A DNA stretch of 64,000 nt, taken from positions 96,001 to 160,000 of IMG/VR virus record IMGVR_UViG_3300028833_000061. One strand, given 5' to 3'. The stretch is from a virus. Its lineage: Duplodnaviria; Caudoviricetes. Of this stretch, positions 5,676 to 24,325 are shown piece by piece. The first letter of the stretch is position 1; every line of letters begins with the position of its first letter. The notes below the pieces were generated by a model that saw only the letters and a program-made list of their open reading frames with translations, was not told where the DNA came from and ran no database searches. The position numbers were made by a program, and so were the translations under genes.

Positions 5676-5702
5676 TTATAACGTTTTTAGTACCGATATT
5701 CA
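5676..5702 (-). promoter_or_regulatory. promoter motif TGAA-N15-CGTTATAA
   Basis: copy of the six-member motif. Confidence 0.55.
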
Positions 5703-6211
5703 GGGATTTCCAACGTCAATCCTCCGTCTTCGTCAAAGCCGGATGTCATTATCTCGTAGTCGTAGTCCTGTATACCGGCACGCATGGCCTCGACAACGTC
5801 TTTTGGAACGTTGTGTATGTCCTTGTGCTCTCCGGTCATTCTGAAGACGACCTGTGGAATGCCCATGGAATCTGCAAAATTTATAAGATCCATCATATGA
5901 ATCTGCTTGATGAACGTGTTGGATACGATAACAGTCGCTCCACGCATCATAGACTGGATAGCACCACTGTTGCACCACTCGATCGCGTCAGGCAGTCTTT
6001 CCTTGGACCACTCATATTTTCCATTCTTCATGAAGAACTGGTCATTCTCGTAGTGAACGATACCATGATCGGACGTACTTAGCTCAAGGAGCCTGTTTGC
6101 GAACGTAGTTTTGCCTGATCCAGGTGCTCCGCGAACGATTATCAGCTTCTGAGGATGGAAAACAAACCGAAGCCACGATGTGGTTTCTGTCGCATCAAGT
6201 TTGATTGTCAT
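5687..6211 (-). CDS. P-loop kinase (AAA_33 / polynucleotide-kinase-like)
   Basis: IIVRGAPGSGKT Walker A; VIVSNTF; HNVP motif. Confidence 0.8.
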   Translation of the reverse strand: MTIKLDATETTSWLRFVFHPQKLIIVRGAPGSGKTTFANRLLELSTSDHGIVHYENDQFFMKNGKYEWSKERLPDAIEWCNSGAIQSMMRGATVIVSNTFIKQIHMMDLINFADSMGIPQVVFRMTGEHKDIHNVPKDVVEAMRAGIQDYDYEIMTSGFDEDGGLTLEIPEYRY

Positions 6212-6250
6212 TTTTTGGTTGTTTGGTTGGTTGTTTTTGGCGTAAAAACT

Positions 6251-6285
6251 AAGAAAAAACGCAGCCTTTTACGGCTACGCTTTTC
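6251..6285 (-). terminator. intrinsic-terminator-like hairpin
   Basis: GCGTAGCC-GTAAAA-GGCTGCGT followed by TTTTTC. Confidence 0.55.
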
Positions 6286-6296
6286 CGTTCATGTAA

Positions 6297-7724: not shown

Positions 7725-9071
7725 CTATACGTTTATGTAATGGATGGACACTAGTCCGTTGTGTGCATCCCATGTAAATACCTGATGCTTCTTAACAGCG
7801 CCGATGAATCTTTCAAGATAGCTCCAAGAGTCGGATTCACACGGTGATCCTATTCTGCGCGTGATGAGCCCTGCATTCTCGTCCACCACCTTTTCGCAAT
7901 GCAGATGGCCCATGTGCAGCTCCCTGTACACCGTGCTTCCCCACTCCTTCGGGAACTCGGCCGGAATTGAAGCTATCGTACGTTTCTGATTTACATCTCC
8001 GTGGTTGTAGAACAGGCCTACGTTTCCGAAAGTAAACGCCTGCGTAGGGGTGTAGTCTTCCTTAAAATGAATAATGTCCTTGTTGTCGGAGAAGTACTCC
8101 TTTAGAGCGCAGTACAGGAAGAACTCCATCGCCCTTGCGTGATTTCCTGCACAAAGCATGACGTTCACGACAGGAAACACCTTGGCTAGCTGCTCGATGA
8201 AATACTTGTACATGTCTAGTCCGCCCATGAACATCTTCCTGAAGTCAGCGGCATTCTGTTGAGGGGTTCCCTTTGTCGTAGTAGTCGTTGACTCGCTGTT
8301 GAAGAAGTCTGACCCTATTACTAGCAGGCACTCGTCGGCGTTTGTCGTTGTCTGCAGATCTATGATTGAGTTGACGATCTTGTAGAAATACTCTTCCGCG
8401 ATATCCAGGTCGTAAGACGTGTGTGAAGCTATGTCGTTTGCTATCCTGCCGTAATGAAGTTCGATCGGTGGTATCTCTAGAAGCCTTGGAGCCCTGCCTA
8501 TGTTAGAGCCATCACGAACGTGTGGTGCTTTCTTGAGCTTTTCGCACTTTCCGATCTTTCCAGAAAACGCCTCTTTTGCGAGCGCCTCGTAGTCCTTGGC
8601 AGTGAGATCGGCCTCGTTCTTCGGCAGAATGACAGCCTTGATGGCGAAGCAGTCCTTGTTAACGCTCTTGGACGGAACGTCCCAGTTGGACAGCGTGTAC
8701 TTTCCAAGCTTGAACAGCTTAGGATCGTATCCTAGCGCCTGCAGAATGACCTCAGGTGTCTTCTTTACGTCATGGTCGAAGTATGCCTTCTTGAAAAGCT
8801 TGATACGGTTGAAGTCCGCATCTACATACTCCTTGCCGTCTTCTGGCTGGAAGTCAGTGTCGTATGCCGGAGCAGAGAGATCTTCTACATACTCTGTAGC
8901 GTCAGCAGGTTCTGCGCACGAGGCATACCAGCGGGAGTATCTTTTCCTGAGCTGCTCTCCTGTTACTTTTTGCTTTGTTTCCTTGTTGAAATATACGGCT
9001 GCTTCGTTCCAGGATTTTCCTGACTCACGCAGGAACATTACGTGGTGGAATATTTCTGTTATGTCTTTCAT
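7725..9071 (-). CDS. calcineurin-like metallophosphoesterase with N-terminal HTH-like region
   Basis: motifs ELHYG, GSDFF, GNHA, HGD and GHLH. Confidence 0.8.
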   Translation of the reverse strand: MKDITEIFHHVMFLRESGKSWNEAAVYFNKETKQKVTGEQLRKRYSRWYASCAEPADATEYVEDLSAPAYDTDFQPEDGKEYVDADFNRIKLFKKAYFDHDVKKTPEVILQALGYDPKLFKLGKYTLSNWDVPSKSVNKDCFAIKAVILPKNEADLTAKDYEALAKEAFSGKIGKCEKLKKAPHVRDGSNIGRAPRLLEIPPIELHYGRIANDIASHTSYDLDIAEEYFYKIVNSIIDLQTTTNADECLLVIGSDFFNSESTTTTTKGTPQQNAADFRKMFMGGLDMYKYFIEQLAKVFPVVNVMLCAGNHARAMEFFLYCALKEYFSDNKDIIHFKEDYTPTQAFTFGNVGLFYNHGDVNQKRTIASIPAEFPKEWGSTVYRELHMGHLHCEKVVDENAGLITRRIGSPCESDSWSYLERFIGAVKKHQVFTWDAHNGLVSIHYINV

Positions 9072-9091
9072 TGGCTGGTTTGGTTTGTGGT

Positions 9092-10300
9092 TTATTTGAG
9101 TTTTTTGATGAAAAGATCGCCATCGTCTGATACGTGGAATCTGAATATTCTTCCATTAGGCGACACTAAATCTATGTGCTCGACCGGCGTATTGATATCG
9201 TTGAGCGTAAGGCCTGAGTAGTTTTTGACCGTAGTCATTTGAAAAACAGTCTCAGCTACCCCCTGGACTATTACATTTTGAATATGTTCGCACGTCGTGG
9301 TGTATTCATTTGCTTCTGCTCCGTCACAAGTCACACTATAGGTCACACTCGGCGAGGCGCCTACGTTTACATGTACATCTACTGAATACTCGTGCTCCGT
9401 TTCAACCGTGAACGAGCCGTCGTACACGTTAGCCGTGTCTTGCGAGTAATCAAGCTCGATATCTGCCTTGTATATGTAGATTACACACTCGTTTGACTCT
9501 GCCGACTTTTCGCGAAGCTTTATACTTCCGCAAATCTTTGCTTTAGATCCAGAACTTGTGGAATACGTCATTATCCCGTCTATCGTAATCGAGTTAGTAC
9601 TGTAGAATAGAGCTACGGCTCGAACAGATCCTGGACGTATAGACAGATCTCCTGTCATTGAGTCTCCGGCCTTGCTGACCTTTGCAGATCCCATCGAATT
9701 GGTTGCATCTATAAGATCAGTCTCGCTAACGGCCCAAGGTGCCGAATCTGCAGGTATATAGCCTGAATCGTCTACAAGTACTGTCGATCTGAACTTCAAC
9801 GTGTTTTCGACGTCGTTTGTTCCGTCACCGAGTTGTATGGCACCGTTTGCATCTGCCTGTGCGCCCTTTCCAACAGCTACGCGGTTCGACCCTACAAACG
9901 AATAGAACTCAGGATCTGTCTCATATGTAGCTAGGTTCTGTATAAGGTTTGATACTGCAGAATCAGCGACACGCATGGCCGTGTTTGTTGCCATCTCTAT
10001 AGTTGAATCAAGCCTGAATGTCACGTTTTCAGAAAGACGGGCCAGTTCTTCCTGATCTCTGCGGCTTCCGTTTTCATTGACCCACTGAAAGACATCAGTA
10101 AACACGTGGTTTGTAGGGATGACGGAATAGTCAAGCGTGCCTTCGGGCCCGAGAAGAGGTATGTAGTTCTCGTACCTTGGAACACCACCTTCTTTTGTCG
10201 TACCCTTGGTTCTAAGAGTGGCTAGGATCGTTGACGCTGACTGCCCCATAGAGCAGGAGCACGCCACAAGAAACACAACTATTGTATTTAGAAACTTCAT
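9092..10300 (-). CDS. fibre/adhesin-like protein with signal-peptide-like N-terminus
   Basis: MKFLNTIVVFLVACSC; AVGKGAQA/AIQLG beta-roll motif; KAGDSMTGDL fibre motif; C-terminal LVSPNGRIFRFHVSDDGDL. Confidence 0.55.
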   Translation of the reverse strand: MKFLNTIVVFLVACSCSMGQSASTILATLRTKGTTKEGGVPRYENYIPLLGPEGTLDYSVIPTNHVFTDVFQWVNENGSRRDQEELARLSENVTFRLDSTIEMATNTAMRVADSAVSNLIQNLATYETDPEFYSFVGSNRVAVGKGAQADANGAIQLGDGTNDVENTLKFRSTVLVDDSGYIPADSAPWAVSETDLIDATNSMGSAKVSKAGDSMTGDLSIRPGSVRAVALFYSTNSITIDGIMTYSTSSGSKAKICGSIKLREKSAESNECVIYIYKADIELDYSQDTANVYDGSFTVETEHEYSVDVHVNVGASPSVTYSVTCDGAEANEYTTTCEHIQNVIVQGVAETVFQMTTVKNYSGLTLNDINTPVEHIDLVSPNGRIFRFHVSDDGDLFIKKLK

Positions 10301-13055: not shown

Positions 13056-15800
13056 ATGAAAATCGATCCCAAACTGTTTCTGAGGGCTCTAGGCTCGAGT
13101 TTACCAGAGGATCCCTCGGAACACAACCACAGCAAGCCTATAAAATGCAGGTGTCCTCTCCACGCAGGCGATGATACCATGTCCGTCATGTATACTTCGG
13201 ACGGAAATATGGTGTTTCGCTGCGTAGAGCATACCTGTAATTTCAATGGCGACGCCATCGCTCTTGTATGTGCCAGGTTCAATGTATCAATAAAGGCCGC
13301 CGTAGAGATGTTCAAGCCAGGCGGAATGCTGGCTTCATGCACCAGGGAGCCGATGAGCACCGACGATGCCAACGTATATCTAGGCAAGGCAAATACTCAG
13401 CAGCGTATAAAAAGCTACCTATCCAAATGCCAACAGTTGCTAGCCAGGAATCCGTCGAAGTGCAAGCTTAGGCCAGGCCTGACACCGGCTAATCTTAAAT
13501 TGCTTCCTCCAGAGGTCGGTTTGCTCGACATAAGCGATGACATGCCTGAGGCGTTTTCTGAATTCAGGAAGTCAAAATACAAAAAAGCGAATCTAATAAC
13601 ATTTCCATTCACTTATAACGGAGAGGTGACGCACGTGCTTGTAGTCGACGCAGACAATACTGCGTTCAGGCGTGATATCTGCATAACCAGACAAGGACTT
13701 GGTGTATTCGGCGAGGACATAACTGCCTATACCAGGAATCACACAATAGCGGCATTTACAGATCCTGTTACTGCATCTATCTACTATGGCACCATACAGC
13801 CAACCTCAAGCAGCAGACCGCCTGTCATGGCTGTTTCTGGGTTCCCACTTCCACACTCTTTCTCTGGTTTGCACGGTATAAGCATTGTAGGAACAGCCGA
13901 CGCTCCTATAACTTTGGATTATCTGCTTAGCGCAGTAGAAGCAGACGATGTCGTCGAAGGAGAAGAACTTCAGCCTTATGTAGGAGTGTACTCCTGTACA
14001 CGTGACATTCGCGATGTCAAAGAAGTCCTGTATTCTGCCATGTCGCAGGCAGAGCAGGAGGTGAAGACTCTAGAGCGGGCAATTGCCGACGAGATCAACA
14101 GGCTTGTAAAGGCAGGAAAGCGCGAACTTGTATTCGACGCGTTCCAGCAGCATCAGCCGCCTCAGCATTTAATCGAGGCGGTCGCGGAAGCCATAAATAC
14201 GTGCAAATACGACGAAGATTGCCTGTCTATCGTAAGAAGTATAGCTGTCACAGAAGTAGGAAAGCACGTACTCGGAAACAAGAAGACAATACTTTCGTCT
14301 GCTACCGGTACTATCTGTGCAGGGTCTAAAGGAGCAAATGACGTTCTGTCGAACTTTGGAATAAGGATCGACAAAAGAGTTCGCGGAGCAGATGGCTCTG
14401 ATTACTTCGTCTGCCTGATATCTCCGGCGGACAGGAGCGTTACCCCAGTATACGTAAACATACCCGAAAGTACGTGTAGCTCGGTTTCACGCATGCGGAG
14501 CCTTATATCCAAGGCATTCTCGGCCTCTGGACAGTCTCCTTACATAGCTATGTACGACGTACCTGGCGTAAGCTGGTATGACGTAATGTCAAAGCTGGCG
14601 GAGGGTTGCAGTGTCAGGAAGGAAGTGACCTCTCTCGGTGTAAACGACATAAGAGATATATACTTCCCGAACTCCATAATTTCAACTAGGACGAACGAGG
14701 TTCTCAACCAAGACGACGTTTCTCACGTCGACGAGGACGCCTGTAACAGATATTCTGCCGTGCACAACACGGAGAACGCCAACTTCATGCTGCCGTTCAA
14801 GCTGCTTGCAGAGAAATGTGACAATATCGAAGTTGGAGCGTTCTTGGCTGGCCTTATGCACTTTATGGGCCACACTGTAGTGCTTGCAAGGTACGGGCGC
14901 TGGGCATCAAACAAGGCAAAACACCTGTTTTTCGTCGAAACAGAGCCTGGCTGCTTCGATTCTGCTATAGCCAAGCTGAATTCTGTATTCACGGACGAGC
15001 CTTTAGCAGAGATAAGCACCAGCGCTCCAGTCAGATCTCTTTCAAGGTATAGCCAACTTGGAACGCTCCCGCTCATCTGCAGAATTCCAAGGGTAGACAA
15101 CATACAACGTCTGCTTAAGGCGGTTGATTCTTCCGAGTTTCCGATAATAGGGATCGTGGATTCGTTCACAGCAAGCGCTTTGAACGGCAGAGTAAACGCT
15201 GCCTACATAACTCCGTCAAACGAGGCAACAGCAGCATACTCCATACACGACAAGACCGTACACGACATCCGTGAGTCTTTTCCGCACATGCTCCTCAAGA
15301 TGTGTACAGACAGCAAGGTTCAGGAGGAGATACAGGATGGCCAGGTGTGCACGCGCGCGTTCGAGCACCTGTGCTCAGTGTTAGGCATACCCCCGTCAAA
15401 GCTGCTGCAAAACATGTGCAGTAAGGTATTTGCTGGGGCGGGAATGTCCGGCGTTGACTCGTTCTTCGACAGGCTACATTTCGGCACGACCGGAATAAGC
15501 TCGAAGATGAACCTGTGTATCGTGTACGGGAAACCGCAGCGAGATTTTAGCTTCACCAAGCGCGGACAGCACATATTCGTAATGGAAGACCGTGTTCTTA
15601 TAGGCAAATACGTGGTAGACTTGGTGAACAAGTTCTCTCACAACGTATTCAGCGTCGATCAGCTGAACGAAGAGCTTAATCAGCGTGAAATGCTTGTCGC
15701 TCTTCCAGACGATGTCGACGTCGACGAAAGCCGCTGCTGGTGCATACCCAGAGATATTTACGACGAAAAGATAATTAAAAAACCAATCCAACTTGACTAG
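13056..15800 (+). CDS. primase-like replication protein with N-terminal CHC2-type zinc finger; catalytic motifs not recognisable
   Basis: CRCPLH...FRCVEHTC...GDAIAL is a DnaG-type zinc-binding domain; 914 aa. Confidence 0.6.
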   Translation: MKIDPKLFLRALGSSLPEDPSEHNHSKPIKCRCPLHAGDDTMSVMYTSDGNMVFRCVEHTCNFNGDAIALVCARFNVSIKAAVEMFKPGGMLASCTREPMSTDDANVYLGKANTQQRIKSYLSKCQQLLARNPSKCKLRPGLTPANLKLLPPEVGLLDISDDMPEAFSEFRKSKYKKANLITFPFTYNGEVTHVLVVDADNTAFRRDICITRQGLGVFGEDITAYTRNHTIAAFTDPVTASIYYGTIQPTSSSRPPVMAVSGFPLPHSFSGLHGISIVGTADAPITLDYLLSAVEADDVVEGEELQPYVGVYSCTRDIRDVKEVLYSAMSQAEQEVKTLERAIADEINRLVKAGKRELVFDAFQQHQPPQHLIEAVAEAINTCKYDEDCLSIVRSIAVTEVGKHVLGNKKTILSSATGTICAGSKGANDVLSNFGIRIDKRVRGADGSDYFVCLISPADRSVTPVYVNIPESTCSSVSRMRSLISKAFSASGQSPYIAMYDVPGVSWYDVMSKLAEGCSVRKEVTSLGVNDIRDIYFPNSIISTRTNEVLNQDDVSHVDEDACNRYSAVHNTENANFMLPFKLLAEKCDNIEVGAFLAGLMHFMGHTVVLARYGRWASNKAKHLFFVETEPGCFDSAIAKLNSVFTDEPLAEISTSAPVRSLSRYSQLGTLPLICRIPRVDNIQRLLKAVDSSEFPIIGIVDSFTASALNGRVNAAYITPSNEATAAYSIHDKTVHDIRESFPHMLLKMCTDSKVQEEIQDGQVCTRAFEHLCSVLGIPPSKLLQNMCSKVFAGAGMSGVDSFFDRLHFGTTGISSKMNLCIVYGKPQRDFSFTKRGQHIFVMEDRVLIGKYVVDLVNKFSHNVFSVDQLNEELNQREMLVALPDDVDVDESRCWCIPRDIYDEKIIKKPIQLD

Positions 15801-18800
15801 AACGGACATGACCTCCGCAAAGATCAATAACTTCGCGCTTTTTCTGACGCGAAAAGAGAAGAATAGGCTGCTCCACACGCAGGAGTATAAGACTGTACTT
15901 GGTGAGGCTGCGTTCATTTTTACAGCGTTGAGCGACGAGAATATAAACAGGTTGCCAGATAGCATGACCTGTATCGTAGCACCGGATATAACGGGTACAA
16001 AGCCTAGACAATTCATAGCTGATCTTGTAAATGCTGTAGAAAACGACGATGACCGTGTATACGCTTATTCAGGATATAGGTTCAAGGATGTCTTAGGTAC
16101 GGTCAATGCGCTGCAGAAAGTAGACGCGTACAATCGCATGCCGTTTGTTCCTCGGCATACTGTCGGAGATTCTCGGCCTGAAAAGATAGATGTAATAACA
16201 AACGGAACGTTTGCGTGTTCGGCCGGAACGCTGAAGTACGCCATGTCAAAGGCTGTTTCATTCGGAAGATACGATGTAAATCTCTCTGTAGCTTTCTCCA
16301 AGACAGGTACAGAGATTGTGTGCATCGTTCCGTCTACCGACTGGTCTGATCTTCCAAAGACGTCGAAGCCAGTAGAAGTCATGGTACGGATGGCCGATGA
16401 ATCTAGGTATCCTCTGTTTTCTTACAACGGATGGCATGTCGTTACAGACAAGCGCGCTGTCTCGTCAAGAGCATGCCCGTCGGATCCTGACTCCGTCGCA
16501 GTGATAATCACTACGCATAACAGGACTGATACAGCCAAGACGACAATAGAAAGTCTCGTCAGCAGGTTGAAATATCCAAAACTGCATTGGTTTATAGCAG
16601 ACGACAGGTCAGACCCGGGGCACGTTAAGCAGCTTGTGGACAAGTTCGTAGAACTAGGAATAAAAGACGTATACGTTACTGAGACAAACGACGAGCACTG
16701 GGGACTTGGGGCTTCGCTGAACAACGCGCTCACCGCTGCTTTTAAGCTGACAGACGTCGTACTTACTACAGAAGATGACTGGTATCTTCAATATGACCTA
16801 GATATTTCTGAGTTTGTAGATACCATTAAAAACGATCAGACAGTAGGTGTAATACGACTAGGTGCCGCCAATCACTTGAGCAAGTATATGGAAGAGTACA
16901 CAGACTCTCTTGCCTGTGTTTCTGTTGAAAAATATAAAAGAGACCGAGACAAGACTGGAAGACTGAACAGTCTTCAGGTGGCCATAAGGCATAAAAGGCT
17001 ATTTGATCGTATAGGGTTCTATATTGAAAACAGCAACCCTGACGTCGTCGAGACGGATATGAACTCAAGGTTCGTTAACTATGGGTTGTTAAAAATCCTG
17101 TGGCCTAAAGCATACTGTACATACGATCTTGTGTGCACAGAGAATCCGTTTATGCATTTTGGAGAGTCGACGGTTGGGCATAGTTTCGAGTACATAGACC
17201 CGTGTACGTCACTTGGATGTACCACCGAGGTAGGAGACACCTCCACCCCGTTTTTCGGGGTTGTAATACCTGTATACAAGTCATGCGAAACGCTTAAACG
17301 AGCGCTTACGTCCATAAAAAAACAGACGTACGGCGGATACAGGGTATACGTGTGCGATGATGAGTCTGGCGAGCCGTATGCGTCTGAAAACGAAAGATCA
17401 GTAAATACGATACTTGGTGCCCGCGGAAAATTCATACGAGCAGGAAGCAAGGTCTATGCCGGTGGAGCTCGTGACAAATGCCTTGAGCAAGCAGAAAAGG
17501 ACAACGTTGAGTATATTCTATTCCTGGATGCCGACGACCTTTATGCATACAACGAATTTTTTGAAGAGCTGCGTAACTGCATACACCACAACAACAATCC
17601 AGACCTTGTAGTTATTCCTGCATATTTTGAAACAACTGAAACAAATACTCTAGAGCAGGTTCTGAAGTGCAAAAATATAGAGGCATATTACAAGCAGTCG
17701 ATCCTCTGCACTCCATGGGCCAAATGTATAAAGGCCAAGCTTTGCCCTAGGTTTGAATCTGGACTACGCCGTGCAAACGATGTGTTACAGCACATGCGTG
17801 TGCTCGATACCGTAAAAACAATCGTGCCATTTAAGAAAATAGCCGTAACACGAAAGAAGGACGGCGAGACCACACTGCATGGCACGGCCAAGAAAAAGAA
17901 CATACAGTCTATCGGGGCTCTTACGGGTCTTTTAAAATGTGCATGTCAAATACTTGAAGAGAAATACGAGCATGAATACATGCGGTGGCCCGTAGCCAGA
18001 TTCGTGAAGATGATTCTTACAACACAAGTCGGAGATGTGCTAAATGCCATGGGTACAAACCTTCAGAATTTGATAGATGTCGGATCGGTGAAAAGAGTGC
18101 ATGACTCCGACAACAGGCTTGTAACCGTAGATCTTGGAGGAAGGCTCGGAAATATAATGCTGTCCATATATACATGTTTCTGGTATGCAAAGACGCACGG
18201 AATGCCTGAAGACGTAGTGAAGATAAATGAAAACTATATTCGCACTGGATTAGCAGGCGACCTTCCTGAGTATTTCAAGATGAACATGCCTATATTCAGC
18301 AATGTAAGAAAACATATAATTCCAGAAGAACAGTACAACAAAGAGGTCCAAGTTGCAGACGTGACCATGCTCAATACTCCAACGCGCTCTGTCGATTCTA
18401 TTGACGCGCTTGATCGCGTATGCTTTCCAAAATACGTGTGGCACTATCCTAAGACAGGCTCAGACAGGGAACAGTTCTGCAAACTATTCAGGGTTCCAGA
18501 GCTAGAGGACGAGCTTAGAAAAAAATACCCGGAATATTTTAAAAATAAAAACGTGGCACTGCACGTTCGACGAACAGATTTTCAGTGGTATGCAAATGGA
18601 AAATACATGGAAGATACGGCATCGATCGTTAAAAAGCTAGACGCACACGCCGGAAAGACAGTTGTCGTATTCTCTGATGATATAGATTGGTGTAAAAACA
18701 ACATAACGTCAGACAAGTGCAATATAATATTCCATGAATCGCAGACGCCTGACTGCATGGACATGGTCTTGATGAGCTTGTTCGATTGCATAGAATCTAA

Positions 18801-18882
18801 CCCGTACTCTACGTTTTCATATTGCGCGAAACTATTGAACAAAAATTTGCCACTTACACGAAGAGTCGGAAAACCGGCATAA
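15793..18882 (+). CDS. multi-domain glycosyltransferase (two GT2 domains plus GT11 fucosyltransferase-like domain)
   Basis: GT2: IITTHNR/ADDRS/TEDDW and VVIPVYK/DDES/FLDADD; GT11: GRLGN, HVRRTDF, VFSDDIDWCK, STFSY. Confidence 0.85.
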   Translation: MTRTDMTSAKINNFALFLTRKEKNRLLHTQEYKTVLGEAAFIFTALSDENINRLPDSMTCIVAPDITGTKPRQFIADLVNAVENDDDRVYAYSGYRFKDVLGTVNALQKVDAYNRMPFVPRHTVGDSRPEKIDVITNGTFACSAGTLKYAMSKAVSFGRYDVNLSVAFSKTGTEIVCIVPSTDWSDLPKTSKPVEVMVRMADESRYPLFSYNGWHVVTDKRAVSSRACPSDPDSVAVIITTHNRTDTAKTTIESLVSRLKYPKLHWFIADDRSDPGHVKQLVDKFVELGIKDVYVTETNDEHWGLGASLNNALTAAFKLTDVVLTTEDDWYLQYDLDISEFVDTIKNDQTVGVIRLGAANHLSKYMEEYTDSLACVSVEKYKRDRDKTGRLNSLQVAIRHKRLFDRIGFYIENSNPDVVETDMNSRFVNYGLLKILWPKAYCTYDLVCTENPFMHFGESTVGHSFEYIDPCTSLGCTTEVGDTSTPFFGVVIPVYKSCETLKRALTSIKKQTYGGYRVYVCDDESGEPYASENERSVNTILGARGKFIRAGSKVYAGGARDKCLEQAEKDNVEYILFLDADDLYAYNEFFEELRNCIHHNNNPDLVVIPAYFETTETNTLEQVLKCKNIEAYYKQSILCTPWAKCIKAKLCPRFESGLRRANDVLQHMRVLDTVKTIVPFKKIAVTRKKDGETTLHGTAKKKNIQSIGALTGLLKCACQILEEKYEHEYMRWPVARFVKMILTTQVGDVLNAMGTNLQNLIDVGSVKRVHDSDNRLVTVDLGGRLGNIMLSIYTCFWYAKTHGMPEDVVKINENYIRTGLAGDLPEYFKMNMPIFSNVRKHIIPEEQYNKEVQVADVTMLNTPTRSVDSIDALDRVCFPKYVWHYPKTGSDREQFCKLFRVPELEDELRKKYPEYFKNKNVALHVRRTDFQWYANGKYMEDTASIVKKLDAHAGKTVVVFSDDIDWCKNNITSDKCNIIFHESQTPDCMDMVLMSLFDCIESNPYSTFSYCAKLLNKNLPLTRRVGKPA

Positions 18883-18914
18883 TTACGAGAAAACAAGGTT
18901 AATTGTACAATATA

Positions 18915-19037
18915 TTAAAACAGAACCGACAGGTCCTCTCCAACCTGTCGGTTCCGACGATATGTCCCACGCCCACGGGTAACCAGCCCGCTTTCTAACC
19001 CATAACCAGCAATCAACCAATACCAACCATAACCTCA
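18915..19037 (-). ncRNA. candidate ~120-nt small RNA with G/U-rich 5' region and terminator hairpin
   Basis: only a 5-codon ORF; TTGACA-type promoter upstream; perfect 12-bp stem 18923-18954 then TGTTTT. Confidence 0.5.
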
Positions 19038-19042
19038 CCTAT

Positions 19043-19072
19043 AATTTAAAACGTAAACGGTTCCAGTGTCAA
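19043..19072 (-). promoter_or_regulatory. sigma70-type promoter TTGACA-N18-TAAATT
   Basis: perfect -35 box at 19067-19072, just after the stop of 19077..19889. Confidence 0.55.
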
Positions 19073-19076
19073 GCAT

Positions 19077-19889
19077 TTATTCTGGCTTCTTCGGGTAGCT
19101 GTACCACGGTGGCCTTAGAATAAACGGTTTAACATGCGGAGGAGGTGGAGGTGGAATCGGACAGGGAGGACGTTTGTCCATAGCTTCCTTAACAGCAGTA
19201 ACAAGCTGTTCTATTGAAGAAGCCATATCTGATAACGCCTTCTCTACATCTGTCTGCTCTGTTTCTTTATCGTCCTTGTCATCCTTGTGCGGACAGCCAG
19301 ACTTAGCGCCGACAAGGTATTCTGCTATAAGCTTTACACCTTCCTCTACGTTTCCAAATGAACTGTGCCCTGCCTCGATATCCGCAAGAACAGCACGAAG
19401 TCTCTCTTTCTGCTCGTCCGTCATCCCCTGAATGCACTTGCATACTGCAGAAGCGGCAGTCTCGTCGTCCCTGTAAGGAATATCGTGAACGGACGAAGAA
19501 GGTTCGTACTCGACTTCGAAGTGTCCAGAAAGCTGCGTCTGACGATGTCGACCGTCAATATCTGTAACGGCTAAAGAAAAAGCGTATGTGCCTCTTCTGA
19601 GGCTGTTTGACACCTTGTCAGGTACGACGACGTGCACAAGACCAGGAATTACTTCGTCTGAAAAAACGCCTTTCGACCACTCGCCGACCCAAATCGGGAA
19701 GTGATTAAATTTCGTCTCTGAAAGCACGAATTTGACGATCGTGTTCCTGTAGTTTGCAGGCATGCCGTTTGAAGGGTTTATAAGCTTTGCGTCAACCTTC
19801 CACGCGTCGCCTGAAACGACCTTGACGATGTGCATCCTGTCGCACTCAAGCGGCTTGTTGCACCCAGGAGGATTTGGTTTTACGAACAT
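19077..19889 (-). CDS. hypothetical protein with beta-sandwich-like N-terminus and Pro-rich tail
   Basis: GDAW...SLRRGTYAFSL beta-rich region, coiled segment and PPPPPP. Confidence 0.55.
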   Translation of the reverse strand: MFVKPNPPGCNKPLECDRMHIVKVVSGDAWKVDAKLINPSNGMPANYRNTIVKFVLSETKFNHFPIWVGEWSKGVFSDEVIPGLVHVVVPDKVSNSLRRGTYAFSLAVTDIDGRHRQTQLSGHFEVEYEPSSSVHDIPYRDDETAASAVCKCIQGMTDEQKERLRAVLADIEAGHSSFGNVEEGVKLIAEYLVGAKSGCPHKDDKDDKETEQTDVEKALSDMASSIEQLVTAVKEAMDKRPPCPIPPPPPPHVKPFILRPPWYSYPKKPE

Positions 19890-19892
19890 GTT

Positions 19893-20867
19893 TTATCCTA
19901 TCTTTATCTTGTTCCACAGCCACTTCCAGAAAGACTGCGTCTTCGGCTTCGTGGCAACCCTAGGGTCTTTTCTGAACACAGGAATACCCCATCCGAACTC
20001 TTCATCCCTGCCTTCAGGCCCTACATCATATGCTATTTTTCTCAATTCGTCACGAAGATCCGCAGGCTTCAGGAAAAGGCCTGTGCGTTTCTTGAAGTCG
20101 CTCTGTATCAATGCACCGACAGCCGCAACCGCAGGACAGGAGAAGCTTGTTCCTGACATTGACGCATACGTATTGTTCAGGAACGTGCTGAATACGTCTA
20201 CACCGCCTGCTGCAAACTCGACCTCAGGTCCTCTTGACGAGAAATCTGCAAGCTTCTGCTTTCTGTCTACTGCAGCTACAGCTATTACAGTATCGAATCT
20301 TGCAGGGAAGTTCACCTCTCCGGAATCGTTTCCAGCTGCTGCAAATAACGTAGCCCCCTTGGAGTACGCATACTCACAGGCCTTCTCCAATGCAGGATCT
20401 ACATAGTAGTTTGAAGGAATTCCAAGCGACATATTGATGATCTGGGCCTTTACGACATCCACTGCCCAGTATATGCCTTCTATGAGGTATCTAGTGGATC
20501 CGCTGCCATACTTGTCAAGAACAGCTCCGTAGTAGTCCTGGCAGTCAGGTGCTATCCCCTTGATTCCTACTCCGTTATCTGCTGTGGCTGCTATCACACC
20601 GCCGCAGAATGTTGAATGGCCCGCCAAATCTAGGCCATACCCAGGTACAAATGAAGTGCTGCCAGCAACAGTTATATCCCTGTGCGTAGGCGTTCCTGTA
20701 TCAAGAATCGCAACCTTTACGCCTTCGCCCCTTGAATTCCTCCAAGCGGAAGGAATGTTCATAAGATCGTGGTTGTAGTCAGTAACCTCGGATAGGGTCT
20801 GCACCTTGAATGCAGGCACTATCGACGGAACCATTGGAAGAAGTTCGTTTAAAGGAAGCTTTTTCAT
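19893..20867 (-). CDS. subtilisin-family (S8) serine protease
   Basis: catalytic motifs ILDTG, GHSTFCGG, AAAGN and GTSFSCP. Confidence 0.92.
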   Translation of the reverse strand: MKKLPLNELLPMVPSIVPAFKVQTLSEVTDYNHDLMNIPSAWRNSRGEGVKVAILDTGTPTHRDITVAGSTSFVPGYGLDLAGHSTFCGGVIAATADNGVGIKGIAPDCQDYYGAVLDKYGSGSTRYLIEGIYWAVDVVKAQIINMSLGIPSNYYVDPALEKACEYAYSKGATLFAAAGNDSGEVNFPARFDTVIAVAAVDRKQKLADFSSRGPEVEFAAGGVDVFSTFLNNTYASMSGTSFSCPAVAAVGALIQSDFKKRTGLFLKPADLRDELRKIAYDVGPEGRDEEFGWGIPVFRKDPRVATKPKTQSFWKWLWNKIKIG

Positions 20868-20895
20868 CCAAGACAGTATAGCATATATAAAATGT

Positions 20896-20933
20896 AAAGA
20901 GAAGCCCCGAGCCCGCTTGCGCGGGCCGGGGCT
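20896..20933 (-). terminator. intrinsic terminator
   Basis: GC stem with GCAA loop followed by TTCTCTTT. Confidence 0.7.
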
Positions 20934-20946
20934 GTCGGGCTAGGAT

Positions 20947-21363
20947 TTAGTAATCCATAGCGATTTGGTATCCAACCCCTTGCTGTCCTTGGGTGAATAG
21001 AGTTCTCCACCCTACACGGACCGCGGACCGGACCGCACAGCGATCCTCGGTGAAGTTGAGGAAGTAGAGGGCATCACGCATGGCGGGAAGTCCCTCCTGC
21101 TCCTCAGTTTCGCGCATCTTTCTGTCGAATTCTGCCGTCCTGATTATCATCCTGTTTGACCACCTCCTTACAGGAGCGAGCGATTTCCACTCCTGTTCTC
21201 CTCGTACAACCACTCTTGCCTGCGACAGGTCGTATCCCGCGTCCCAGAACCTGGCCTCTTCGGCCAGTTTGCTCGGATCATACCCAAGCATTCTTGCGAG
21301 CTTTTTGGTGTACTGGAACACGCCACCGTGGGCGATTGCAGCCTTCATTTGCCGTTTCTTCAT
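20947..21363 (-). CDS. hypothetical protein
   Basis: start MKKRQ with AAAGGAAG RBS. Confidence 0.65.
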   Translation of the reverse strand: MKKRQMKAAIAHGGVFQYTKKLARMLGYDPSKLAEEARFWDAGYDLSQARVVVRGEQEWKSLAPVRRWSNRMIIRTAEFDRKMRETEEQEGLPAMRDALYFLNFTEDRCAVRSAVRVGWRTLFTQGQQGVGYQIAMDY

Positions 21364-21515
21364 CTTGCTTCCTTTCTGGGCGATTGCCCGGTTGCCGTCC
21401 GCGACGAAGCAACGATCGCGAACGGTTGTTTTTGACGGAGACGCCATGTGCTGACCACCCGGCCAGCATGCACGACGATCGTTCCGTCGAACAATCGCCT
21501 TTCGGCTTCAATTAT

Positions 21516-21542
21516 TTATACCGCGAAAATGCCTGGAATTAA
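21516..21542 (-). promoter_or_regulatory. promoter motif TTAA-N15-CGGTATAA
   Basis: copy of the six-member motif, directly after a terminator. Confidence 0.65.
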
Positions 21543-21558
21543 GTCTTCGTACAACGGG

Positions 21559-21589
21559 TAAAAGAAAGCCCCGGAACATACTCCGGGGC
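21559..21589 (-). terminator. intrinsic terminator
   Basis: GCCCCGGA...TCCGGGGC followed by TTTCTTTT. Confidence 0.7.
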
Positions 21590-21595
21590 ATTCCA

Positions 21596-22063
21596 TTAAC
21601 GGGCTTCCATAAGGCGCTTCAACCTGGCTGGATGGCGCAGCTTTCGCAGCGACCGAGCCTCTATCTGGCGAACTCGCTCGCGCGTTATGCCGAGGCGTTC
21701 GCCGACCTCTTCGAGAGTAAGCGGCTTATTGCCGCTAAGGCCGAACCTGAGAGACATTACAATTCTCTCTCGCTCCTTAAGAGTATTTAGGACCGAGTGC
21801 ACGACATCGAAGATATCGACGATCGCCATGTTGTCGGTAGGAAGCCTGGGCTGTGTCCTTGCTTCCTCGAAAACCTCCTCGGCCAGCTTTTTCTTTTTAA
21901 GCCTCTTCGATACGTGGGCCGAATCAATAATACGGCCATTCTTTGTTGTCTGGAGGCCACATCTGTTGTGCTTGCCTCCAGTGCATTCGACACACGTGGC
22001 ACATCTGTCTGTGTCACGTTGCTCGCCCGTAACAGGGCAAAGGAATCTTGCGTGTGTTTTCAT
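21596..22063 (-). CDS. stand-alone sigma70 region-4 protein with N-terminal Cys cluster
   Basis: LKERERIVMSLRFGL...TLEEVGERLGITRERVRQIEARSLRKLRHP closely resembles RpoD region 4; CPVTG...CATCVEC...C. Confidence 0.85.
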   Translation of the reverse strand: MKTHARFLCPVTGEQRDTDRCATCVECTGGKHNRCGLQTTKNGRIIDSAHVSKRLKKKKLAEEVFEEARTQPRLPTDNMAIVDIFDVVHSVLNTLKERERIVMSLRFGLSGNKPLTLEEVGERLGITRERVRQIEARSLRKLRHPARLKRLMEAR

Positions 22064-22088
22064 GGTTTTGGTTGGTTGTGGTTGGTGT

Positions 22089-22126
22089 AAAAGTAAAGAA
22101 ACGCACGGAGACTGGTCGCGCGTTTC
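22089..22126 (-). terminator. terminator-like hairpin
   Basis: GAAACGCGCG...CGTGCGTTTC followed by TTTACTTTT. Confidence 0.55.
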
Positions 22127-22133
22127 ATCTGGG

Positions 22134-22637
22134 TTAGTGTTTGTACTCAAGAACGATGACGTCGTCCACGAGTTCGAGAAGCACACGGGCTGCCATGTGC
22201 GAGTCGTACGACTTTTGCGCTGTCGTTAGAGGAATCTCGCGAAATGCCTCCTTTACTGCAACACTGTACGGCTTCGTGCATGCCTTCGTTTTTGCAAGCT
22301 TCTTCACAGCCGCAACACGAACGACAGCCGCAGACACTGCGAACTCGTCCTTGCGTGACGTCCAGACATCAAGCTTGGACCAGCGCAAGAACATGTCCTC
22401 CAGTCCGTTGATGATAACGGACGGATACCAGTCGAGCGCGCGGTTGACTGCGCAGACTACATCGTACCGCGACAGCTCTTTGGAATCTTCGTCCAGCATC
22501 TCGTGCGCGACCGCACGAGTGTTTGACATCGCACGATCGAGAAAACGAGTCTTGTTCTTTACATGGATGTGCTCGTTGCCCCATGATCGAACGACCTGGA
22601 TCTGCGCGCAGCAGCACGTTAGTGAGAGAGTGTTCAT
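22134..22637 (-). CDS. hypothetical protein
   Basis: start MNTLSL after a C/A-rich leader. Confidence 0.6.
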   Translation of the reverse strand: MNTLSLTCCCAQIQVVRSWGNEHIHVKNKTRFLDRAMSNTRAVAHEMLDEDSKELSRYDVVCAVNRALDWYPSVIINGLEDMFLRWSKLDVWTSRKDEFAVSAAVVRVAAVKKLAKTKACTKPYSVAVKEAFREIPLTTAQKSYDSHMAARVLLELVDDVIVLEYKH

Positions 22638-22670
22638 GGTGTGTAGTTGTTGTTGGTTGTCGTTGATGCA

Positions 22671-22703
22671 AGTAAAGAAGCGCGGATGTTGAGTCCGCGC
22701 TTC
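22671..22703 (-). terminator. terminator-like hairpin
   Basis: GAAGCGCGGA...TCCGCGCTTC followed by TTTACT. Confidence 0.55.
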
Positions 22704-22707
22704 CTGG

Positions 22708-22881
22708 CTAGCGAGCGTGCTCAATCGCACAGTGCTCGCTGCATCCCTTCGTTGCACTGCCCCATTGTGGGCAGCCGGGGCAGCACGGGCCCCAGTTATC
22801 GTGGGAGGACTGGATTGCCTCCCAATCGACGGACGGCTTGTTCGGCTCGTCCGATTTCTTTGAATTGTTTTCGTTATTCAT
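22708..22881 (-). CDS. 57-aa Cys-rich peptide (CCPGCP...C...HC)
   Basis: lies between a promoter copy and a hairpin; C/A-rich leader. Confidence 0.5.
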   Translation of the reverse strand: MNNENNSKKSDEPNKPSVDWEAIQSSHDNWGPCCPGCPQWGSATKGCSEHCAIEHAR

Positions 22882-22915
22882 GTGTGTGGTACGAGTTGGT
22901 TTTCCTCGCAATAAG

Positions 22916-22942
22916 TTATAACTTATTCCATACAATATTTAA
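22916..22942 (-). promoter_or_regulatory. promoter motif TTAA-N15-AGTTATAA
   Basis: copy of the six-member motif. Confidence 0.55.
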
Positions 22943-22966
22943 AAGAAGGCCGGAGGCCGACCTTCT
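22941..22966 (-). terminator. intrinsic terminator
   Basis: AGAAGGTCGG...CCGGCCTTCT followed by TTT. Confidence 0.6.
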
Positions 22967-22976
22967 GCTGCAAGGA

Positions 22977-23642
22977 TTACTCCTCCAGCCCCAGCTTGAT
23001 GCTGTCCTCCATGAGCTTGACTGCGTCCTGGATGCTGTTGGCAAGCTTTAGGGCGTCCTCTTTGTCGCCGACACGTCCAAGCTCCCAGAACTCGCGGAAG
23101 AAATGCATCGTTACTTCGCGTGCGTTCTTCAGGGTCTCTAGAACCTTGTTGAAGGCGTCGAGCCGTTCCTGCTTGGCTTCCTCGGCTTCGTCCGCAAGCA
23201 TCTCCTCGACATCTTCCGGTGCGCACATCTTGTGCGCCAAGGCCATGTCTTCGGATGAATGTTTGTTTTCGAATGACCACTGTATCCAGCTAGGAGGCTT
23301 TCCTCCGAACGTAGAAGTCCAGCCTGCGCGATTGTTCTTCACTTCGAACTCGGTGGATTCTGCAACGAGCTCTCCGATGAACTTTGGCGTCATGGATGCT
23401 CCTAGCAGCGGAAGCGCGAAGAACTTGCCTGTTCCGGCAGGCATCAGGTGTCCGGTGTTATCCGTGCACGAGAAGCCCTTGCATGGACAGACGATCCACG
23501 AGAGGACTTCGCCGTTGTCGCCTGACATCCACGAAGTGATGACGAGCGAAGGAACGCCGTTGATGAGCCGAACGTCGCCTGGCTTGATGGCGTCACCGCT
23601 TTTGGCAGGAGGGGTGATCGAACCTTTGTTGTTTGTGTCCAT
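22977..23642 (-). CDS. hypothetical protein with acidic coiled-coil C-terminus
   Basis: 221-aa ORF bounded by hairpins. Confidence 0.7.
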   Translation of the reverse strand: MDTNNKGSITPPAKSGDAIKPGDVRLINGVPSLVITSWMSGDNGEVLSWIVCPCKGFSCTDNTGHLMPAGTGKFFALPLLGASMTPKFIGELVAESTEFEVKNNRAGWTSTFGGKPPSWIQWSFENKHSSEDMALAHKMCAPEDVEEMLADEAEEAKQERLDAFNKVLETLKNAREVTMHFFREFWELGRVGDKEDALKLANSIQDAVKLMEDSIKLGLEE

Positions 23643-23712
23643 AGTGAAAAATCCTGAGGGGTAAACAGACTATTTATAATCCGCCGTCTGCCAGGGCGGA
23701 GTTGGTGGTTGA

Positions 23713-24201
23713 TTAGTAGTCGTGGCGCTGGCAACCGCACCAGCCCCAATTGGAGAGGAGGGGATCGGGTCTGCCATCGTCTTGTTCGGTGAACTTCGCA
23801 TAGAGCTTGAGCTCCTCACCGCGAAGTTTCAAACTCCGTGCGTTGGTGTAGAACAGCGAGCGAACATGCTCGCGGTCTCGCCTGCTTCTGGATACCCAGT
23901 CCGTCATTTCGTTGATGTCGATCTTGTCGGTGCCTACGACGCGAGCATCGTGGCAAGCTACGAGGCAGAGCGCCTCGTTGAGATCTGTCTGAGCCATCCT
24001 GATTTTGTGCAGGAGTTGGCACTGGGTCCAGTTCCTGTCCTCGATTTTCTCCGGGACCTGCTCGGCAGCGTCCTGGATGATCTTGGCGAAGGCGGCGCAA
24101 GCCGCCAGCAGGACTTTGTAGCCACGCTGGATGATGTTCAGCGGCGTGGACGCTGCGGGGATGTGCTCCCCGTACTTGAGCGGGAGGAGGTTGATTTTCA
24201 T
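23713..24201 (-). CDS. hypothetical protein
   Basis: start MKINLL preceded by CCAACC. Confidence 0.65.
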   Translation of the reverse strand: MKINLLPLKYGEHIPAASTPLNIIQRGYKVLLAACAAFAKIIQDAAEQVPEKIEDRNWTQCQLLHKIRMAQTDLNEALCLVACHDARVVGTDKIDINEMTDWVSRSRRDREHVRSLFYTNARSLKLRGEELKLYAKFTEQDDGRPDPLLSNWGWCGCQRHDY

Positions 24202-24325
24202 GGTTGGCGGGGTGCTGGTACTTTGTCGCAAGCACGATCCTTTTCATCGTGGCATGCAACTGCCTCTCCGCAACCTGTGTAGGGTGCGTAGATTTAATCC
24301 GATTTGGAAGCTTCCCAGCAACTAT

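Follow-up and report, generated by a model that had tools for sequence, protein, structure and literature searches.

A conserved candidate small RNA gene of a rumen phage lineage and its predicted pairing with C/A-only leaders of the same phage

Results

Genes and features at the locus

The window analysed here is a 64,000-nt stretch of DNA, bases 96001-160000 of a 201,401-bp viral contig from a rumen phage lineage of about 200 kb. DNA of this phage is present in sheep-gut metagenomes, and partial matches were found in goat and bovine gut runs. The unit under study, located on the minus strand (19072-18917), fills the gap between two converging genes, one coding for a 270-aa protein on the minus strand and the other for a glycosyltransferase with three domains on the plus strand (15793-18882). 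No other terminator was found between the stop codon of the 270-aa gene at 19077 and the hairpin at 18956-18921, so that transcripts of this gene, too, should stop at the hairpin of the unit. Elsewhere in the genome, the phage encodes a multisubunit RNA polymerase (genome 177712-182142 and 167406-169277; L118, L119), with a 1476-aa chain combining the beta domains and the N-terminal beta-prime domains, and with beta-prime domain 5 in a separate 623-aa protein.

The tRNA search of the 64-kb window returned none, and the search of GenBank phage DNA with 18600-19400 gave zero matches. IMG/VR scans with the 270-aa protein and the protease gave no relatives, and the glycosyltransferase led only to distant domain hits. 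In the same way, exact-pattern scans of viral, metagenome and genome collections gave no match, the first two patterns having contained bases that are variable in relatives. The sigma region-4 protein, used as a host clue, had matches of 50-68% in many phyla and gave no host call.

The S8-type protease gene (19893-20867) exhibits a TG-n-TATACT extended -10 element that ends 7 nt before the ATG, with no SD, and a leaderless mRNA is therefore predicted for it. This element is kept in every relative examined, those devoid of the unit included. In the 98% relative (L023:1730-3997 / L030:5652-7919) the protease has 755 aa, compared to 324 aa in the window; the longer protein contains intein and LAGLIDADG homing-endonuclease domains, so that an intein is missing from the window copy.

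Anatomy of the unit

A first-pass annotation, made from the letters of the sequence, had proposed a phage small RNA in this gap, and all of the sequence elements that it listed were found in place. The TTGACA-N18-TAAATT promoter that it had described has 10/12 matches and is the top promoter-like site in 17.5-25 kb, although the score alone is ordinary, 26 sites with at least 10/12 matches being present in the 201-kb genome, 3-4 of them intergenic. The hairpin is present as well and is followed by UUUU at 18920-18917, but 15 pairs were counted, G.U pairs included, and not the 12 that had been announced; it is the strongest hairpin in 17.5-25 kb. The positions of all these elements are collected in Table 1.

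The 5' part of the predicted RNA is a tract spanning 19034-18994 on the minus strand, composed almost purely of G and U, in which TGGTT repeats within 19030-19004 recur with 10- and 11-nt spacing. The first 26 nt, invariant in every copy, contain UUGGUUG, the exact complement of the word CAACCAA found in the leaders described below. The predicted fold has an energy of -42.3 kcal/mol (z = -2.8) and leaves the G/U 5' part, with the 26-nt tract, mostly unpaired. No Rfam family matched the unit, and the window gave no hit at the gathering threshold; RefA9 and NrrF gave weak hits (E 0.6-1.7), which lie at the terminator but on its wrong strand and were attributed to chance. A second G/T-rich tract (genome 95826-95842), located among a series of small hydrophobic ORFs, has no relation to the unit.

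Table 1. Coordinates of the unit, of the candidate target leaders and of neighbouring features. Positions are those of the window unless a relative or the genome is named.
Feature	Position	Strand	Remark
Upstream 270-aa gene, function unassigned	19077..19889	-	own terminator absent; RNA contigs bridge the stop codon
-35 hexamer TTGACA	19067..19072	-	invariant in the window, L023/L030, L024, L025 and L035
Promoter spacer, 18 nt	19049..19066	-	length fixed, sequence free
-10 hexamer TAAATT	19043..19048	-	invariant across all copies
Variable discriminator, from the -10 to the inferred start (about A19035)	19036..19042	-	differs in all four copies
G/U-rich 5' end, 26 nt, proposed seed	19010..19035	-	100% identity in every copy
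G/U tract extension, variable	18993..19009	-	C19009 changed to U and last GGGUUAG unit degraded in L025, L035 and X9
Conserved middle segment with small CGGG/CCCG hairpin	18957..18992	-	loop shows another UGGUU; 97% identity to L025
Terminator hairpin, 15 bp	18921..18956	-	two one-sided changes in relatives, pairs kept
U tract	18917..18920	-	end point of similarity to all relatives
ORFs in the unit	51-aa GTG 19038-18883; 33-aa TTG 19016-18915; 5-codon ATG mini-ORF at 19030	-	
C/A-only leader of the sigma region-4 gene (21596-22063)	22064..22089	-	predicted target; conserved in L030 and L035
C/A-only leader of the 167-aa gene (22134-22637)	22638..22665	-	predicted target
C/A-only leader of the SbcD-like exonuclease gene (7725-9071)	9072..9095	-	predicted target
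C/A-only leader of the kinase-like ATPase gene (5687-6211)	6212..6243	-	predicted target
Short CCAACC leader of the 162-aa gene (23713-24201)	24202..24209	-	weak candidate target, across the AUG
C/A-leader sites adjacent to tRNA genes	genome 50731-50760, 54109-54135, 56417-56445 (L032)		
Terminator-like hairpins before C/A leaders	22090-22130, 22666-22700, 21560-21590, 6244-6290		
Extended -10 of the S8-type protease gene	20868-20905	-	
Extended -10 of the S8-type protease gene in relatives	L019:4985-5022, L025:366-403, L029:52-89, L030:5614-5651, L035:8985-9022		conserved

Conservation of the unit among relatives

Homologues of the 270-aa protein were found with identities from 98% down to 37%, and the DNA around eleven of them was targeted for comparison. 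The unit is located behind four of these homologues, namely at 98% (L023/L030), at 88% (L024) and in two cases at 68% identity (L025, L035); the L024 contig stops inside the tract and L035 comes from a 172-kb contig. A goat-gut contig from a different study covers 18917-19127 with substitutions of the L025/L035 type and with flanks unlike those of the window. The P0011 contig was set aside because its downstream DNA is unrelated. Behind the homologues at 64%, 62%, 61%, 57% and 49% identity the unit is absent, and in these relatives a gap of 6-37 nt separates the converging genes, or the homologue is followed by other genes. Judged by this distribution, the unit is a trait of one sub-lineage. 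Terminase relatives at 51% identity (L014, L015/G001, 52 kb) have neither the unit nor C/A leaders, and are too distant to inform.

The first-pass annotation had named conservation in related phages as a check of its proposal, and the GGUU tract, the promoter and the hairpin were indeed all kept. Within the promoter, 13 of the 18 spacer positions differ in L024 and 2-4 in L023 and L025, the length of the spacer being always 18, and the eight bases right after the -10 hexamer are variable in every copy. Compared with L025, the 3' half of the 270-aa gene has 40-60% nucleotide identity, the unit 87-97% (97% for the middle segment and the hairpin) and the DNA beyond the U run 23%. The substitutions in the hairpin of relatives change a G.U into an A-U pair and a U-A into a U.G pair, and none of them breaks a pair. 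The downstream neighbour changes by lineage, being the glycosyltransferase, a 253-aa gene or an ATP-grasp gene. On these alignments the pattern is beyond chance or neutral drift, and the way in which the positions change is the mark of a promoter followed by a functional RNA 5' end and a terminator, and not of a neutral spacer or a recently copied block. We consider it very probable that the unit is a functional, conserved phage non-coding RNA (sRNA) gene; on comparison it exhibits its own promoter, an intrinsic 3' terminator and a conserved accessible seed, with no conserved ORF.

The last 30 nt of the 270-aa gene (19080-19109) are 93-100% identical in L024 and L025, compared to 40-77% for the remaining 3' half, so that the conserved island starts before the stop codon. 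These 30 nt may correspond to an upstream promoter element or to a conserved C-terminal peptide.

Transcript data

RNA contigs covering 18965-19544 and 18972-19557 were present in two metatranscriptome runs from one sheep-gut sample; such contigs do not reveal where a transcript ends, its strand or its level, and may stem from carried-over DNA. They join the G/U tract to the 3' part of the 270-aa gene across its stop codon, and leave 18812-18964, hairpin included, uncovered. Since both runs come from one sample, no 3' end should be read from the points 18965 and 18972 at which the contigs stop. The bridging of the stop codon means that a 3'UTR form of the RNA is also possible, and a read-through mRNA ending at the hairpin of the unit is likely. 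The putative form initiated at the promoter of the unit itself is proposed from the comparative evidence.

A class of C/A-only leaders

An SD-like core was found in 113 of the 250 ORFs of the phage, many being of the GGAGG type. Eight genes have at least 18 C/A bases among the 20 directly before the ATG and no SD core, and looser C/A leaders precede a few more, for a total of about 8-12. Chance falls far short of explaining this leader class. The C/A tracts (ten or more) are all on the coding strand, sense to their own gene, and the 7-mer CAACCAA has 21 coding-strand copies compared to 5 on the other strand, one of these five being the complement of the G/U tract of the sRNA. The products of the genes with C/A leaders are a sigma-70 region-4 protein, an SbcD-like exonuclease, a DnaB-like helicase, an HNH endonuclease, a kinase-like ATPase and several unassigned proteins. 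The C/A tract is absent from the structural genes with SD, and its length and its register relative to the ATG are variable. The five leaders quoted in the first-pass annotation (genes beginning at 6211, 9071, 22063, 22637 and 24201) have the sequences given there, the leader at 24201 being weak; with only 8 C/A bases it may be a chance match. The C/A tract at 23698-23714 does not count as a leader, as it lies across a stop codon.

Three genes with C/A leaders begin within about 10-12 nt of the 3' ends of tRNA genes, and tRNA processing could leave them with short unstructured 5' leaders. Terminator-like hairpins with a common TTTCTTTAC-like tail are located directly upstream of several other C/A leaders. 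Transcripts of the genes behind these hairpins would arise by read-through of the terminator or by processing, and an attenuation layer is possible there.

C/A leaders in relatives

In both L030 and L035 the sigma region-4 gene has a C/A-only leader with small changes, and one of these turns a predicted G-C pair into a G.U pair; the leader of the SbcD-like gene is C/A-only in L035. In the 20-kb locus of L035 these same two genes, sigma region-4 and SbcD-like, give the best duplexes with the local RNA. L036, a relative without the unit, has an SbcD-like gene with an ordinary leader, not C/A, and no C/A leaders were found in the 3-13 kb available for each of L019, L020, L021 and L026, where the unit is also absent. 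The 57% relative L029 has no G/U unit after the homologous gene and exhibits two genes with C/A-only leaders in the 8 kb read, which indicates that the leaders are independent of the RNA. When own and swapped sRNA-leader pairs were compared between lineages, the differences were at most 2 kcal/mol, in mixed directions, with no clear co-variation.

The two C/A-leader genes of L029 are located at L029:2064-2725, one of them directly behind a hairpin. The start called at 2662 is probably an error; the C/A tract precedes an ATG at 2722. The sigma region-4 gene and two other genes with C/A leaders form a variable cassette (window 20947-24300) that is absent in L019-type relatives (L019:4971-5023) and has a different content in L030 (3442-5652) and in L035.

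Predicted pairing of the 5' end with the leaders

The 33-nt 5' part of the RNA was compared by RNAduplex with 305 candidate start regions (-30 to +6). The best partners have energies of -30 to -24 kcal/mol and are chiefly genes with C/A leaders; the eight strict C/A leaders have a mean duplex energy of -25 kcal/mol, compared to -13.8 for all start regions. Comparison with shuffled controls, which the first-pass annotation had asked for, came out modestly in favour of pairing: the top-5 mean is -28.0 kcal/mol against -23.9 ± 1.4, 1 of 150 dinucleotide shuffles being as good, and the top-10 mean is -25.8 against -22.6 ± 1.2 kcal/mol for shuffled seeds, again with 1 of 150 equal. The advantage of the real seed over the shuffles is about 2.6-2.9 sd, and the single best duplex value is unexceptional, as it was matched by 10 of 150 shuffles. 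Relative to random 36-nt windows, start regions are 8-fold enriched (odds ratio) at -27 kcal/mol or below (p=0.003), and only 2.4-fold at -24 kcal/mol or below (p=0.04). After cofolding with the full-length RNA, genes with C/A leaders account for 9 of the 16 best start regions by energy gain, with top values of -27.7 to -26.6 kcal/mol compared to a mean of -9.4 ± 4.8. Pairing thus has a real signal of moderate size, which is what low-complexity sequence would give. In a genome scan by RNAduplex with sliding 50-nt windows, long imperfect duplexes rich in GC prevailed, and nothing could be learned from it.

Discussion

Proposed action of the RNA

The best reading of these data, for which we see about even chances, is that the unit is a gene for an RNA of about 119 nt that silences the C/A leaders of the phage itself in a GcvB-like manner. 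Host RNA polymerase would start at about A19035, and the unstructured G/U 5' end of the RNA would pair over 15-30 nt with the unstructured C/A leaders abutting the AUG in about 8-12 phage genes, the pairing spanning -25 to the AUG. As the C/A leaders have no SD, the C/A tract is presumably their ribosome-loading element; once this tract, and sometimes the AUG too, was covered, 30S binding would be blocked and the whole set would be silenced jointly. The seed would also be present in the 3'UTR of mRNA reading through from the upstream operon. Because the phage has its own RNA polymerase, the sigma-70-type promoter of the unit suggests, speculatively, an early host-dependent synthesis. More tentatively, the leaders and the RNA might together form a self-contained regime, in which an SD-less regulon of the CAACCAA type, with replication, repair and transcription-takeover functions, is shut off by one anti-leader RNA; produced both from a host-type promoter and as the 3' end of a neighbouring operon mRNA, this RNA would then work as a developmental timer.

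Alternative explanations

It is possible, though we hold it rather unlikely, that the unit is a real independent sRNA with a different job than the silencing of phage C/A leaders, such as the targeting of host mRNAs, activation or protection by masking of Rho-loading sites, or titration of an RNA-binding protein. The evidence at the level of the gene fits this explanation equally, the invariant stretch of 26 nt exceeds the need of a simple seed, and L029 has C/A leaders with no unit at the locus. Rho-loading sites are C-rich and G-poor, and the C/A-rich, G-free leaders resemble them. However, strong complementarity to the seed was seen, within the phage sequence searched, solely in the start regions of the phage itself, and the duplexes extend to the AUG, which would normally block initiation.

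It is improbable that a separate RNA gene is lacking and that the stretch serves just as 3'UTR and terminator for the 270-aa mRNA, possibly contributing in cis to its stability. The terminator-free path from the stop codon at 19077 to the hairpin and the RNA contigs of two runs, which go from the gene into the tract, agree with it; it leaves unexplained, however, the invariant hexamers held at a fixed 18-nt spacing around a free spacer, as well as an invariant 26-nt tract next to a variable segment of 8 nt, and relatives with a homologue at 49-64% identity manage without the stretch, in gaps of 6-37 nt.

Slightly less probable again is a DNA-level element, in which the TGGTT repeats and the CAACCA tracts would serve as binding sites for one DNA-binding protein of the phage or as promoters for its RNA polymerase. 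The TGGTT spacing of 10-11 bp, the location of C/A tracts directly after terminators or tRNA genes and directly before the ATG, and the presence of both an RNA polymerase and a sigma region-4 protein among the phage products speak in its favour, and with a multisubunit enzyme of its own the phage could use such tracts for transcription. But the leader tracts are all sense, the tract of the unit alone being opposite relative to its own promoter and terminator, and this strict orientation rule, expected for RNA complementarity, disfavours a site acting as DNA; moreover, the length of the C/A tract and its ATG register vary, and structural genes bearing an SD have no tract.

A small protein encoded by one of the three ORFs of the unit (Table 1) is hardly credible, even with an SD-like AGGUGA before the mini-ORF: the GTG start (19038-19036) and the AGGUGA are lost through variation of the discriminator, and in L025 and L035 all long frames are disrupted by two 1-nt indels. 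Coding is therefore excluded except for the 5-codon mini-ORF, which survives as part of the invariant tract, with a ribosome site that is not conserved. A plus-strand transcript starting near TACAAT (18906-18911) and acting as a C/A decoy had also been suggested and is rejected here: the hexamer exists, but in a segment unconserved in any relative, and the T run is missing on the plus-strand side of the hairpin.

Significance and comparison with known systems

Few phage regulatory RNAs are known, mostly from temperate phages of model hosts and acting on host genes. Here one uncultured rumen phage of about 200 kb, with an RNA polymerase of its own, combines an SD-less class of C/A-only leaders with a conserved RNA whose invariant 5' end mirrors them. 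A functional link between the two would represent an RNA-only timing by a virus of the translation of a gene set, and a natural case of enhancer masking beyond the enterobacterial GcvB. The C/A leaders alone inform how ribosomes start without SD pairing, and both the unit and the leaders are short, portable pieces.

GcvB silences many mRNAs by pairing of a G/U-rich region with C/A-rich translation enhancers (PMC3879156). The likeness of the unit is functional only, and consists in a single-stranded G/U region complementary to C/A-rich target start sites; the GcvB model (RF00022) gave no hit at E up to 10 in 18850-19120. In contrast to GcvB, the unit is phage-encoded, has about 119 nt with the seed at the extreme 5' end, and has no gcvA-linked locus, and its predicted targets are SD-less and come from the phage itself, whereas GcvB is enterobacterial and Hfq-dependent. 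DapZ of Salmonella is an sRNA located in a 3'UTR, with its own promoter and a GcvB-like G/U seed. The unit shows a likeness of the DapZ/MicL type: located at the 3' end of a protein gene, it shares a common terminator with the upstream mRNA, its promoter is separate, and its seed is G/U-rich. It differs from DapZ in that the promoter begins 5 nt past the stop codon and not within the coding sequence, in its phage context and in having an unrelated sequence.

Among the sRNAs of phages and prophages, VpdS (VP882), PreS (lambda), StxS and DicF are of temperate origin and act mainly on host mRNAs or sRNAs (PMC12197685). The unit resembles them in being encoded in a phage genome and in its proposed base-pairing action, but none of them is described with a G/U-only seed matching SD-less leaders of its own phage, and a search of the open-access literature gave no description of a phage RNA that matches a class of such leaders. 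The c4 RNA of P1/P7 and the sar RNA of P22 occlude the ribosome-binding region of an mRNA of their own phage, each for a single gene (ant) and through specific complementary sites in one operon, whereas the unit matches a dispersed set of about ten genes with a common leader. In its proposed action the unit is like GcvB and DapZ, but it belongs to neither family.
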